Positions 8,067 to 64,000 are shown, counted from the stretch's first letter. The stretch: DNA of 64,000 nucleotides from Candidatus Deferrimicrobiaceae bacterium (GCA_041633075.1 JBFKGZ010000001.1:854-64853); one strand, 5' to 3'. Numbers and translations: made by a program. Notes: a model not told the origin generated them from the sequence alone.

Positions 8067-8233
8067 CTGCGCAGCCCTCTTGCCGCCGGATGGCGGGGCA
8101 ACGTCCCGGATGCAAAGCCGACGCAGGCGCTCCCGCAGCAGGGCGATGGCGACGGAGCAGCCGAGGAAGGGGGTTCCGAACGGAGCTTCTCGGGGAGGAA
8201 GGGCGAGCGCAGACTTGCGGGTGGTTCGCAAGT

Positions 8234-8276
8234 CGAGCGACGAAGCGAGGGGCCCCCTCCGAGGATGCGGAAGCGG
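8234..8276. repeat. partial copy (core only) of intergenic repeat family (see 35359, 38296, 63950)
   Basis: cgagcgacgaagcgaggggccccctccgaggatgcggaagcgg is ~85% identical to the ...cgagccacgaRcggagcccccctccgaggatgcggagccg core of the larger copies. Confidence 0.4.
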
Positions 8277-34493: not shown

Positions 34494-34522
34494 ATTAGAC
34501 CTCAGCCAACCTCCAACGTCAA
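34494..34522 (-). promoter_or_regulatory. candidate sigma70 promoter for rplM-rpsI
   Basis: Minus strand: TTGACG (34522..34517) - 17 nt - TCTAAT (34499..34494), ~35 nt upstream of rplM ATG; the -35 overlaps the truA stop codon. Confidence 0.45.
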
Positions 34523-35316
34523 GAGGAAAAACCGTTTTCCCGCTTCCCCCCGGCCGGGCGGGAGGACGGGCTTTTCCCGTACACCACCTCCCACAGGAAC
34601 AGTCCGTGGGGCGGAGCGGTGGGCCCGGCAAGCGTCCGGTCCCGCCGCCCGAGCAGTTCGCGGACCCAGTCCGGCAGGTTCTTTCCCCTGCCGATGTCAA
34701 CGAGTGTCCCCGCGACGTTTCGCACCATGTGCCTGAGGAAACCGCTGCCGGCAATGCGGACGGAGACCAGACCCGGAACGCCTTCCTCCTCGATGCCGGC
34801 GCGAAAAATTTCCCGGATCGTGGTCCTTGCGGCGCATCCCTGTCCCCGAAAGGAGGAAAAATCGTGCTTTCCCACGATATGTGCGAGACCTTGCCGCATC
34901 GCGTCGATGTCGACAAGTTTTCCCAGGTGCCACGAGTAGCGCGCCAGAAACGGGGAGGCGGCGGAATCAAGGTAGAAAAAGTACCGGTATTCCTTGCTTT
35001 TTGCGTCACGTCGCGCGTTGAAGGACGGAGATGCCTCCTTCGCGGAAAGGATCCGGATATCCGGCGGGAGAAGAGCGTTTCCCCCCCGGACGACTGTACC
35101 CAAAGAACGTCTCCCGGAGTCGGCGAAATCGACCACCTGTTCCCGGGCATGCACCCCCGCATCGGTGCGGCCGGCCGGCCGGAGACGGACCGGCTCCTGG
35201 AGGAGCCGGGAAAGGGCATCCTCCGCCACCGACTGGATGGTGACCCCGTTCGCCTGGCGCTGGAACCCGCTGTACGCCATCCCGTCGTACGCAATCGTCA
35301 GTTTTACGCGGCGCAT
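34519..35316 (-). CDS. truA: tRNA pseudouridine(38-40) synthase
   Basis: MRRVKLTIAYDGMAYSGFQRQ... with catalytic RTDAGVHA motif; 266 aa from ATG 35316 (track ORF extends upstream into the repeat, rejected). Confidence 0.85.
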   Translation of the reverse strand: MRRVKLTIAYDGMAYSGFQRQANGVTIQSVAEDALSRLLQEPVRLRPAGRTDAGVHAREQVVDFADSGRRSLGTVVRGGNALLPPDIRILSAKEASPSFNARRDAKSKEYRYFFYLDSAASPFLARYSWHLGKLVDIDAMRQGLAHIVGKHDFSSFRGQGCAARTTIREIFRAGIEEEGVPGLVSVRIAGSGFLRHMVRNVAGTLVDIGRGKNLPDWVRELLGRRDRTLAGPTAPPHGLFLWEVVYGKSPSSRPAGGKRENGFSS

Positions 35317-35358: not shown

Positions 35359-35571
35359 GGACCCTGGCTCGCGGGGGATTCCCCTCCGCATCGCCACGGG
35401 TCCCCGTTCATCGGCGCAGCAGCCGCAGGAGGCGGGGCGCAGTGAGGTAAAGCGCAGCCGTGCGGGTTCATCGCACGGCGAGCCACGAACGGAGCCCCCC
35501 TCCGAGGATGCGGAGCCGAGCCCGGGGATCGAAACGCCACCGGGAGCGGGGGAACCCTCCGCTCCCGGTGG
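35359..35571. repeat. intergenic repeat family copy A (asd-truA spacer)
   Basis: ~160-bp core (35359..35517) nearly identical to 38296..38542 apart from a ~90-bp indel; contains conserved hairpin ccgtgcg-N7-cgcacgg and, 3' of the core, a perfect 13-bp hairpin ccaccgggagcgg-N9-ccgctcccggtgg (35537..35571). Confidence 0.6.
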
Positions 35572-35601: not shown

Positions 35602-36639
35602 TTACGCGTGGGCGGGATGCAGGTGCTTCTGGACGAGCACCTCGGCGATCTGGATCGCATTCAGGGCCGCCCCCTTCCGCAGCTGGTCCCCGCACACCCA
35701 GAAGTTCAGGGCGTTCTCCGCGCTCTCATCCTCGCGGATGCGCCCGACGTAGCAATCGTCCTTTCCCGCGCAGAAAAGAGGCATCGGGTACACGCTGCCC
35801 GCCGGGTCGTCCATCACCTGGCAGCCGGGAAACGCCGCGATCAGCTCCCGCGCCTTTTCGCGGGAGATTTTCCTCTCGAACTGTGCGTTGACCGAGATCG
35901 AGTGGGCGGTCAGGACCGGTACGCGGACCGTGGTGCAGGTGATGCGCAGGTCAGGAATCCCCATGATCTTGCGCCCCTCGTTCGTCATCTTCATCTCTTC
36001 CCTCGTGTATCCGTTCTCGAGGAAGGCGTCGATATGCGGAATCACGTTGAAGGCGATCTGGTGCGGGAACGCCGCCACTTCCAGTTTCTCGTTGCTGGCG
36101 AACGCCTTCGTCTGCGCGATGAGCTCGGCCATCGCCTTGGCCCCCGCTCCGGAGGTCGCCTGATAGGAGGAAGCCACGACCCGCCGCAGCGTTCCGAAGT
36201 CGTGCAGGGGCTTGAGCGGCATGACCGCGACGATTGTGGTACAGTTCGGGTTCGCGATGATCCCCCGATTCCGGTATTGGACGATCGCGTCGCCGTTGAT
36301 CTCGGGCACCACCAACGGGATGTCGGGCTCCATCCGGAAGGCCGACGAGTTGTCGACGACCACCGCTCCGGACTCCCCGGCCGCCGGGGCGAACTCCCTG
36401 CTCCGGGACGCCCCCGCCGAGAACAGGGCGATGTCGATACCCCGGAAAGCGCCTTTCTGGAGGAGTTCGACGGGAACCTCTTCCCCCCGGAACCGGACCC
36501 TTTTCCCGACCGACCTTTCGGAGGCAAGCAGCCGGATGTTCCGAATGGGAAACTTCCTCTCCTCCAGGATCCGCAGCATCACGTTCCCGACCGCTCCCGT
36601 CGCACCCGCAACGGCGACGTTAACGTTTTTCGTGGCCAT
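35602..36639 (-). CDS. asd: aspartate-semialdehyde dehydrogenase
   Basis: N-terminal NAD(P)-binding VAVAGATGAVG and full-length Asd similarity (active-site Cys region NPNCTT). Confidence 0.9.
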   Translation of the reverse strand: MATKNVNVAVAGATGAVGNVMLRILEERKFPIRNIRLLASERSVGKRVRFRGEEVPVELLQKGAFRGIDIALFSAGASRSREFAPAAGESGAVVVDNSSAFRMEPDIPLVVPEINGDAIVQYRNRGIIANPNCTTIVAVMPLKPLHDFGTLRRVVASSYQATSGAGAKAMAELIAQTKAFASNEKLEVAAFPHQIAFNVIPHIDAFLENGYTREEMKMTNEGRKIMGIPDLRITCTTVRVPVLTAHSISVNAQFERKISREKARELIAAFPGCQVMDDPAGSVYPMPLFCAGKDDCYVGRIREDESAENALNFWVCGDQLRKGAALNAIQIAEVLVQKHLHPAHA

Positions 36640-37748: not shown

Positions 37749-38246
37749 CTACGTTCCTTTCCGCCGGGACGCCATGTAGTTCAGCAATCCGCCTGCAGCG
37801 ACAAGTTCCTGCATGAACGGCGGTACCGCGGCAATGGCGTACTGACGCCCCTTCGTCTCGTTTCGCAGCATTCCCTGCCGCATGTCCAGCACAAGAACGT
37901 CCCCCGCATCGATCTCGTCAATCGCCTGGGGCACCTCGAAGATGGGAAGACCCATGTTGAACGCGTTCCGGTAGAAGATCCGCGCAAACGAGCGGGCGAT
38001 CACGGCGGAGGCTCCGGACGCCTTGATGGCGATGGGAGCGTGCTCTCGGGAGGAGCCGCACCCGAAGTTCTTCCCTGCCACGAGAAAATCCCCTGTGGAG
38101 ACCTTCGCCGCATACTCCTTGTCGATGTCCTCCATGCAGTGGCGGGCCAGTTCCGCCGGGTTTGAGGTGTTCAGGTATCGTGCGGGGATGATGACGTCGG
38201 TGTCGACATCATTCCCGAATTTCCAGGCCCGTCCTTTCAGCGCCAT
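37749..38246 (-). CDS. leuD: 3-isopropylmalate dehydratase small subunit
   Basis: 165 aa from ATG 38246 ([25 protein letters not shown]...); the track ORF's extra N-terminal extension runs into the repeat and is rejected. Confidence 0.85.
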
Positions 38247-38295: not shown

Positions 38296-38680
38296 GGACC
38301 CTGGCTCGCGGGGGATTCCTCTCCGCTACGCTCGCGACCTTCGCCCGCTCGCTGCCGGTTCCGCTCGCGAAAGCAGGGAACTCTCTCCACAGGCCGCTCC
38401 GCGGAACCCCCCGCATCGCCCCGGGTCCCCGTTCATCGGCGCAGCAGCCGCAGGAGGCGGGGCGCAGTGAGGTAATGCGCAGCCGTGCAGGTTTACCGCA
38501 CGGCGAGCCACGAGCGGAGCCCCCCTCCGAGGATGCGGAGCCGGTCCCGCCATCGGCCTGCCAAGTCCTGCCCCAGGGAACAAGCAGGGACGGTCCTGTC
38601 ATCCCTTCCTGGTTTCTCCAACCTTCGTCGTGAACCGCGGGCCCGCTGTAGGCCCACCAAGTCCTGCCCCAGGACCGTCC
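38296..38680. repeat. intergenic repeat family copy B (inserted between leuC and leuD), composite
   Basis: Core 38296..38542 matches copy A plus a ~90-bp extra segment (tacgctcgcgacctt...ggaaccccccgc) that copy D also starts. The 3' extension holds a 17-bp direct repeat ccaagtcctgccccagg (38561 and 38657) and a 12-bp inverted repeat agggacggtcct / aggaccgtccct (38586 / 38671). Confidence 0.6.
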
Positions 38681-39943
38681 CTACAGTTCGTCGGGGCCGC
38701 CGATGCGGCCGAGTACCGCGGAGGCTGCCGCCACCGCGGGGTTGGAGAGGTAGACCTCACTCTCGGGATGCCCCATCCGGCCCACGAAATTGCGGTTCGT
38801 GGTGGCGACGGCCTTCTCCCCCTTTGCCAGAATTCCCATGTGCCCGCCCAGGCACGGCCCGCAGGTCGGCGTGGAAAAGGCCGCTCCCGCGGTCACGAAG
38901 GTCTCCATCAGCCCCTCCCGCATCGCCTGGAGGTATATCTCCTGCGTGGCGGGGAACACGATCATCCGGACGCCATCGTGGATTTTCCGGCCGCGCAGGA
39001 CCTCGCACGCGCTCCGGAGATCCTCGATGCGTCCGTTGGTGCACGAGCCCACCACGACCTGGTCGATGGGGACGTTCCCCACCCGGGAAAGGGACCGGGT
39101 GTTTTCCGGCATGTGCGGGAACGCCACCTGCGGCTCGAGAGCACCCAGGTCGATCCCCATCTCCGCCGCGTACCGGGCATCGCGGTCCGCCTCGACCACC
39201 GTGTATTTCCGGGAGGCCCGCTCGTCCGCGTAGGCCTTCGTGATCCCGTCGAAGGGAAAGATGCCGTTTTTCGCGCCGGCCTCGATCGCCATGTTGGAAA
39301 TCGTAAACCGCCAAGCCATCGGGAGAGCCGCGAGGCCGTCCCCGGCATACTCCATCGCCTGGTAGAGTGCTCCGTCCCCGCCGATCTCCCCGATGATGTG
39401 GAGGATGACGTCCTTGCCCTCGACCCACTTCCGTGGCTTGCCGGAAAGCACGATCCGGATCGACTTGGGCACCTTGAGCCACACCTCCCCGGAGATCATC
39501 GCCGCGGCCAGGTCGGTACTGCCGACTCCGGTCGAGAAGGCGCACAGCGCACCGTAGGTGCAGGTGTGGCTGTCCGCTCCGATCACGAGATCGCCGGGAA
39601 CGACGAGCCCCTCGTCGGGCAAGAGCACGTGCTCGATCCCCATCCGCCCTACCTCGAAGTAGTTCACGATCCCGTATTCGCGGGCGAAGTCGCGCATTAT
39701 CCTGGCCTGTTCCGCCGAGGCGATGTCCTTGTTCGGCGTGAAGTGGTCCGGGACGAGCGCAATCCGCTCCCGGTCGAATACCTCCCGGACTCCCAGGTTC
39801 CGGACCGCCTGGATGGCGATCGGGCTTGTCACATCATTGCCGAGCGCGAGGTCGACCCTCGCCAGGATCAGTTCCCCCGGCTCAACCGTCTCTTTCCCCG
39901 CGTGCCTCGCGAGGATCTTCTCTGTGAGCGTCATGCCCGCCAA
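38681..39943 (-). CDS. leuC: 3-isopropylmalate dehydratase large subunit (aconitase family)
   Basis: 420-aa [19 protein letters not shown]... with aconitase-family Cys ligand motifs. Confidence 0.9.
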
Positions 39944-63949: not shown

Positions 63950-64000
63950 GGACCCGGGCTCGCGGGGGGCTTCCGCATCCGCTACGCTCGCGACCTTGCG
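63950..64000. repeat. 5' end of another copy (D) of the intergenic repeat family, truncated by window end
   Basis: ggacccgggctcgcggggggcttccgcatccgctacgctcgcgaccttgcg matches the start of copy B (ggaccctggctcgcgggggattcctctccgctacgctcgcgaccttcgc), including the segment that copy A lacks. Confidence 0.5.

Follow-up and report, generated by a model that had tools for sequence, protein, structure and literature searches.

A modular, hairpin-forming intergenic repeat family of Deferrimicrobiaceae-type genomes with REPIN-, BIME- and ERIC-like features

What is the G+C-rich sequence that recurs in short spacers of this Deferrimicrobiaceae genome, and does it spread for itself or serve the genes around it? 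The question was raised by an initial annotation of a 64,000-nt stretch of DNA (hereafter the window), in which a repeat of about 160 bp was noted between asd and truA and at three further places. The four copies were found at those places with a similarity far beyond chance, and they form one family. Copy A (35359-35517, minus strand) lies between asd (35602-36639, minus) and truA (34519-35316, minus). Copy B (38296-38542, minus) lies between leuC (38681-39943, minus) and leuD (37749-38246, minus). Copy C (8151-8274, minus) occupies the spacer between an rluD-like gene and a Cu-oxidase_4 (yfiH-like) gene. Copy D (63950-64000, minus) is found upstream of an oppD-like ATPase gene and consists of the last 51 nt of its second module, since the window edge cuts the rest. 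A repeat search of the window paired copies A and B over 143 nt with 94% identity (35382-35524 with 38407-38549) and over 36 nt with 92% identity (35359-35394 with 38296-38331). BLASTN inside the window gave E=4e-59 for A against B, E=2e-11 for A against the copy near 8234, and E=1e-10 for B against 63950-63997.

The anatomy of the family was described on the sense strand, defined as the window's minus strand. The full element measures 247-301 nt, and 14 full-length copies could be aligned from sharp end to sharp end. In sense order it consists of module I, a short linker, and module II. Module I has about 105 nt and opens with a 20-nt motif, GGCTCCGCATCCTCGGAGGGGGG; in a subfamily that has an additional hairpin, its length is about 124 nt. 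Module II has about 135-190 nt and is closed by a stem in which GGGGACCC..GCGGGGGG pairs with CCCCCCGC..GGGTCC. Its interior is almost invariant: a near-invariant core of about 60 nt is accompanied by variable flanking stems and by optional hairpins at helix tips, and length variation is found mainly at these tips. The 14 aligned copies end in ...GCGAGCCAGGGTCC with no inverted motif, and unrelated sequence follows this sharp 3' boundary. The modules were found alone, joined as I-II, in tandem, or broken by other small repeats; forms with only module I, forms with only module II, and mini forms exist, and module II is often deleted or interrupted in copies that are themselves retained. At the collected loci L066, L137 (three units, period 135) and L143, the units form tandem arrays whose period is about 135-155 nt. 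A coding sequence was rejected because the indels between copies are not multiples of three and Pfam gave no hit for the sole ORF called over a copy.

Copy B is a full element, with a whole-copy family profile match of E=1.5e-65. It comprises module I (38438-38542, minus), a linker (38431-38437, minus) and module II (38296-38430, minus), the latter with the closing stem given above and the near-invariant core GCGGCCTGTGGAGCGAG ... CGAGCGGAACCGGCAGCGAGCGGGCG.AAGGTCGCGAGCGTAGC. In copy A, module I (35413-35517, minus; about 105 nt, profile E=4e-34) is a long imperfect hairpin that starts with the 20-nt motif and contains a tip hairpin (35457-35479, minus). It is followed by a 7-nt linker (35406-35412, minus) and by a remnant of module II (35359-35405, minus), in which the basal stem alone is left and the interior is lost. 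The orthologous asd-truA spacer of a sister genome (L010; flanks 95-96% identical) has a full 249-nt element, which identifies copy A as a deletion derivative; the deletion end points, as read from the sequence, fall within GCGGRG direct repeats. Module I of copy A is 99% identical to that of the orthologous L010 copy and 95% identical to that of copy B. A form smaller than copy A was found at L037. The core of about 160 bp in the initial annotation does recur, but it consists of module I together with a collapsed module II, and it is copy B that has the form of the full element.

Copy C had been described as a partial copy near 8234. The whole feature at 8151-8274 is instead a complete module I of another subfamily (subfamily b), with an extra internal hairpin, CCCCGAGAAGCTCCGTTCGG, and a profile match of E=1e-16. 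Copies A and B have CGCCGTGCG/CGCACGGCG where its tip hairpin has CGACTTGCG/CGCAAGTCG, a covarying difference. The sequence after copy C (8102-8150, minus) holds a small hairpin and a degenerate second motif, GGCTTTGCATCCGGGACG; by eye, with no scored match, it appears to resemble the tandem-array junctions of L066 and L115.

Copy D matched the family profile with E=6e-07, and its full form was seen in contig L189 (GCA_041577195.1, JBFGJK010000001.1), which is 99.9% identical to the window. There it is a 464-nt element (L189 2494-2957) in the oppC-oppD spacer with two other repeats nested inside, at L189 2560-2739 and about 2815-2870, just past the window's right edge. The nested repeats belong to family X (about 180 nt, containing AACGAAGCCGGAGCGGATGCAGCGG..CTCGAATGCCGGGATCT) and family Y (a palindrome with the ends GGGGACAYTCC...GGARTGTCCCC). 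Both are nested at fixed points inside copies, also in L005, L077, L109, L159, L186, L100, L143 and others, and neither occurs inside the 64-kb window. A 191-aa gene without a Pfam hit is annotated across the oppC-oppD spacer of the same genome (L189 2436-3011, GCA_041577195.1). Since the 464-nt repeat fills this spacer, the annotated gene is in all likelihood a spurious ORF.

The distribution of the family was investigated by scanning one genome per species for the most conserved 18-mer, which returned 67 loci. About 35 of the 67 were true copies, all in Deferrimicrobiaceae-type MAGs, and the rest were single chance matches in unrelated taxa. The family was present in at least eight Deferrimicrobiaceae-type genomes, with about 5-10 exact-motif sites per representative genome, not hundreds; single representative genomes had the motif 7-8 times, and 'Deltaproteobacteria bacterium CSP1-8' had 8 motif sites. 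A metagenome scan with a slightly degenerate motif returned at least 120 contigs, and 64 of the 120 contigs listed carry at least 95 further copies. At least eight metagenome contigs end inside a copy, as is expected when assemblies break at repeats. With dozens of copies in many genomes, an origin of the window copies by local duplication only does not hold. All copies, at least 138, lie between called genes, and the ORFs that overlap copies were attributed to over-extended ORF starts. One MAG with copies, 'Candidatus Limnocylindria bacterium SMAG_U16032' (Chloroflexota; L010 and L038; DATHRT010000109.1), matches two 8-kb stretches of the window at 95-96% identity. Other relatives, just as close, carry the label Deferrimicrobiaceae, and the label or the binning of SMAG_U16032 looks wrong.

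The initial annotation could match the sequence to no family, and database searches agreed. Rfam 15 gave 0 hits at the gathering score in the window, and for five full-length loci and the copy B spacer it gave chance-level hits only (E≥0.75). A known RNA family, whether riboswitch, leader, sRNA, ribozyme or transposon-associated RNA, was rejected on these empty scans. A phage or plasmid origin was also rejected, with no match in viral contigs, a phage collection or a plasmid collection. By these Rfam, plasmid, phage and viral-contig searches the family is previously uncatalogued. The repeats are not mentioned in the lineage's one genome paper, which notes just five mobile-element genes.

Selection on structure had been proposed from a hairpin whose stem was kept while its loop differed. 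The hairpin is present (35457-35479 in copy A), but the supposed loop difference of copy B is a C-to-U change, which keeps a G.U pair only on the minus strand. The retention of the stem agreed with the alignments. Module I is predicted to fold on either strand into one long imperfect hairpin, in which the 5' motif and its imperfect inverted counterpart near the 3' end are paired. Among 32 distinct aligned copies, 96.9% of the module I cells were paired, and the tip hairpin had three covarying pairs (CG/AU/GC, GC/UA and UA/CG) with both sides changed; its stem is thus kept by compensatory changes. The observed pairing and covariation of module I were reached by no shuffle and no slid register. 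In module II, 98% of cells were paired among 48 distinct copies, with only 4 covarying pairs; covariation is nearly uninformative there because the module hardly varies.

The strand that folds was considered from wobble pairs and predicted energies. The ratio of G.U to A.C cells was 62:8 in module II and 28:6 in module I, counts that derive from few independent substitutions. Where stems vary, G.U pairs on the sense strand reach high frequency, and the A.C cells that G.U pairs on the other strand would produce occur as rare singletons. This asymmetry hints that the sense strand folds, and the sense strand is the probable folding strand. Predicted energy was rejected as a means of picking the strand because the results contradict each other: in full-length copies the minus-strand fold is 7.8 kcal/mol more stable, and in module I alone the plus-strand fold is more stable by 7.4 kcal/mol. 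The wobble counts were the only consistent hint.

The behaviour of the element over time was followed at orthologous spacers. In close relatives these spacers differ and are empty, hold a single module, or hold a full element. At one convergent site, L044 has an empty spacer, L053 has module I and L015 has a full element. Five genomes carry a copy in the leuC-leuD spacer, arranged in three ways: the window, L061 and L104 have a full element that points the same way as the genes; in L150 the full element points the other way; and in L038 module I stands alone, likewise reversed. The L038 copy and module I of copy B are 98.1% identical, and the two have in common a unique loop variant, GGTAAACCT; copy B and its co-oriented orthologue in L061 are 90.5% identical. 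The shared variant and the 98.1% identity indicate that L038 carries an in-place inversion, not a new insertion. Another spacer gave a further series, with a junction remnant only in L115, the A-type form in L036/L054/L079, one tandem unit in L066 and a complex mosaic in L148. Copies persist at orthologous spacers across species while they are remodelled by deletion, inversion, change in unit number and nesting.

The leuC-leuD spacer of the window also has an extra segment of about 135 nt adjoining copy B (38543-38680), with a long predicted stem and a local direct repeat (38542-38577 and 38638-38673, 83% identical). L061, L104 and L038 lack this segment in their orthologous spacers, and it had no match in the other collected loci.

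Copies A-D are all on one strand, and their flanking genes are all on the minus strand. The uniform orientation in co-directional spacers noted initially is correct for the window (4/4) but not elsewhere in the family. Orientation was counted for 86 copies with both neighbours called. Fifty of the 86 were in co-directional spacers (30 co-oriented, 20 anti-oriented), 20 in convergent spacers and 16 in divergent spacers. The profile score per position was equal for co-oriented and anti-oriented copies (p=0.48). In view of the mixed orientations and the equal conservation, the 4/4 orientation of the window is not a family property, and a transcription-coupled element was rejected on the same statistics. 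Orientation agreed with local GC skew in 53/107 cases and with gene strand in 58/107; no replication-strand bias was seen against either, the loci being short and the replication proxy weak. As a separate observation on the window (1-64000), 49 of 55 ORFs from an ad hoc gene caller are on the minus strand and the plus-strand GC skew is -0.07. These two features suggest that the window belongs to a single replichore whose leading-strand sequence is the minus strand.

The results bear on a host-selected, cis-acting mRNA element, such as an intercistronic stabiliser, a processing site or 'operon punctuation' tuning the flanking genes. Consistent with such a role, the four window copies are co-oriented with the genes inside operon-like arrays, the same spacers are occupied across species (as leuC-leuD in its five genomes), and the stems tolerate G.U on the gene-sense strand of the window. 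The structures are also very stable, with z=-5.2 for the predicted fold of the asd-truA spacer minus-strand transcript. However, orientation is near random across the family, convergent and divergent spacers are used too, anti-oriented copies are equally conserved, and close relatives have an empty or single-module spacer. The neighbouring genes share no common feature. Operon punctuation, as the initial annotation put it, would keep the element co-directional with the genes, yet all spacer types are used and the orientation flips at the orthologous leuC-leuD spacer. A host mRNA element is an unlikely explanation of the family.

The neighbours were examined further. They are unrelated housekeeping genes, including leuC/D, asd, truA, opp, UbiA/UbiD, Fur, CysS, UvrB, NrfD, TsaD and PhoH. 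Clustering of 172 adjacent ORFs gave orthologous housekeeping sets only, which implies that about 45-50 distinct spacers are recurrently occupied across genomes. A cis-regulatory leader or riboswitch was rejected on account of both orientations and no coherent downstream gene set. No transposase was found among the neighbours (Pfam on 29 neighbours and the clustering of 172 ORFs), no nuclease or recombinase gene was adjacent at about 50 distinct sites, and a crude motif screen detected no HUH-Y motif ORF in about 1.3 Mb of collected loci. No promoter-like or terminator-like sites were found in the asd-truA and leuC-leuD spacers, and no result favours an sRNA gene, another possibility raised initially.

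A MITE had also been suggested, with target-site duplications as a possible sign of such an origin. No duplication was found: the longest k-mer shared by the two flanks was 3.97 on average, versus 3.84 +/- 0.30 after shuffling (34 full-length copies). The flanks had no conserved target sequence, with upstream positions at no more than about 0.6 bits. A classical MITE would be a deletion derivative of an IS with a DDE transposase, moved by cut-and-paste through terminal inverted repeats. The size range of 100-300 nt, the presence/absence differences between relatives and the nested insertions would fit this explanation, as would the few copies bracketed by an inverted 20-nt motif (L053, L064). 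That inverted motif lies beyond the 3' end only in these few; it is missing from most full-length copies, and terminal inverted repeats are thus not general. No motif pair brackets a transposase in the collected loci. Since there is no target-site duplication above chance, a classic MITE is not supported, and this origin is very unlikely.

The constancy of module II raises the possibility of a stand-alone structured ncRNA or a mobile-element RNA, such as an omega- or bridge-type scaffold or guide, with module II as its functional core. A near-invariant core of about 60 nt with variable stems and helix-tip indels is a pattern typical of functional RNAs, and the sharp 3' boundary with unrelated sequence beyond it and the strand-specific wobble tolerance agree with it. 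However, Rfam gave no match, transposon-associated RNAs included, and the distinct sites, about 50, have no adjacent nuclease or recombinase gene. Covariation is almost absent from module II, which hardly varies, promoter-like and terminator-like signals are missing from the two window spacers, and copies are often retained although their module II is deleted or interrupted. Such an RNA seems a most improbable explanation of the family.

The nearest known analogues are REP/BIME-type repeats, as the initial annotation proposed. A REPIN is defined by inverted conserved arms around a less conserved spacer, which form a hairpin in single-stranded DNA or mRNA and show compensatory changes (PMC3116915). 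Module I fits this definition closely. As in REPINs, the units are extragenic, interspersed and numerous in a genome; module I has two conserved inverted arms and a less conserved spacer in a hairpin of about 100 nt with compensatory changes; singlets, doublets and clusters occur; and copies persist vertically at the same sites with no target-site duplication. The family differs from REPINs in several respects. The decisive feature of the REPIN-RAYT system is a cognate single-copy RAYT (Y1/HUH transposase) gene with the same REPs on its flanks, and none was found in the crude HUH screen of about 1.3 Mb of loci. The head is not GTAG/GTGG but the motif (G)GCTCCGCATCCTCGGAGGGGG, and the similarity between the arms is imperfect. 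Module I is usually joined to module II, which is not REP-like and has an invariant core, the copies per genome apparently number tens, not hundreds, and the lineage is unrelated, with no sequence similarity.

Other repeats show part of the same behaviour. The BIMEs of Escherichia coli combine a palindromic unit with other motifs in mosaics whose unit order, orientation and number vary between sites and strains. They occur between operon genes and at gene ends and bind IHF, gyrase or Pol I. The present family has the same mosaics of palindromic units in variable order, orientation and number and the same operon and gene-end location, but its units are three to eight times longer. ERIC/IRU sequences of Enterobacteria and Vibrio are imperfect palindromes of about 100-130 nt in transcribed intergenic regions, in either orientation, with internal deletions that give short forms and fixed-site insertions that give long forms; we know of no mechanism established for their mobilisation. 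The likeness to them is one of behaviour only: an imperfect intergenic palindrome of about 100-130 nt in either orientation, with variants by internal deletion and insertion. There is no sequence similarity, the phylum is another, and the two-module composite and the tandem arrays are particular to the present family.

Clear terminal inverted repeats and a target-site duplication characterise the Correia elements of Neisseria and other MITEs. Such elements are likewise small, non-autonomous, intergenic, co-transcribed with neighbours and nestable, but in the present family neither the inverted repeats nor the duplication is general. PATEs derived from IS200/IS605 have hairpin-rich ends with neither terminal inverted repeats nor target-site duplication. 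The present family shares these properties, and here too one strand is apparently folded. Unlike PATEs, it has no conserved 4-5-nt target beside the 5' end, no strand bias against the weak gene-strand proxy, no TnpA/TnpB nearby and no match to the IS605-associated RNAs of Rfam. An IS200/IS605-derived element was set aside on the missing target motif and the missing strand bias, the latter being indicative because the proxy is weak. The two-module build and the size of the family are unusual among interspersed palindromic intergenic repeats.

Together, the intergenic location, the indifference to orientation and neighbours, the mosaics, the polymorphism combined with site persistence, and the compensatory changes in hairpins match a selfish palindromic repeat. 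The family is probably a lineage-specific, non-coding, modular and non-autonomous repeat of MBNT15/Deferrimicrobiaceae, of REPIN/BIME/ERIC-like character, that spreads selfishly and is likely to be mobilised in trans as a folded single strand. According to this proposal, the family would spread and be homogenised as selfish DNA, and the folded single strand would be recognised by a hairpin-specific enzyme encoded elsewhere, of the HUH/RAYT or IS200/IS605 type. Mobilisation of a folded single strand is suggested by the missing duplications and inverted termini, the strand-specific wobble tolerance and the independence from transcription. Copies that lie in operon transcripts (leuC-leuD, asd-truA and oppC-oppD) may incidentally affect mRNA decay or processing through their hairpins, and such an effect in the leuCD, asd-truA and opp transcripts is plausible.

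Several results run against the selfish-repeat explanation. The crude HUH-motif screen of the collected loci was negative, there is no GTAG-like 5' tetranucleotide, and the number of copies per genome looks modest. Classical REPs/REPINs are smaller and simpler than this element, which measures 105-300 nt and has an invariant core that is not palindromic. Long persistence at the same spacers in several species could reflect a host function. The absence of gene-strand bias (58/107) also counts against it, as single-strand transposition of the IS200/IS605 type would predict a bias, although the proxy is weak. A more doubtful alternative is that module II, and perhaps the whole element, serves as the recognition or scaffold nucleic acid of an undescribed MBNT15 mobilisation system. 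This might be a new hairpin-specific single-strand transposase with a large two-module substrate, or an RNA-guided element whose RNA has been dispersed from the protein gene. Such a system would explain why the core of about 60 nt is invariant, why the 3' boundary is sharp, why wobble tolerance depends on the strand and why the element is indifferent to transcription direction, and it is considered quite unlikely.

If the selfish-repeat explanation is correct, the range of REPIN/BIME-like selfish palindromes is extended to a candidate phylum in which very few mobile-element genes are annotated. The series found at single spacers (empty, single module, full, inverted and tandem) provides natural material for the study of element turnover. 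The repeats break MAG assemblies, create spurious ORF calls and probably produce foldback contigs, so knowledge of the family should improve the assembly and annotation of MBNT15/Deferrimicrobiaceae genomes. The copies could also be used as hypervariable strain-typing markers, as ERIC and REP are elsewhere. In a 1.6-kb metagenome contig (L098, 330-990), a full element is flanked on each side by the asd 3' end and its hairpin, the two flanks being inverted relative to each other. A duplicated flank around the copy was considered and rejected, since the contig is palindromic; it is most likely a foldback assembly artefact arising from a palindromic repeat.

The hairpin beside copy A was examined separately. 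The perfect 13-bp G+C hairpin noted initially (35537-35571, minus) is present 31 nt downstream of the asd stop, without a real U-tract, and the terminator scan skips it because it has no T-run. It is conserved in the orthologous L010 locus with a different loop, and among the collected loci its other matches were only on L098, the probable artefact contig. The hairpin adjoins the repeat family without belonging to it and may be the native 3' hairpin of asd, beside which the element sits. In many other copies, an unrelated G+C hairpin is likewise found just upstream of the motif.
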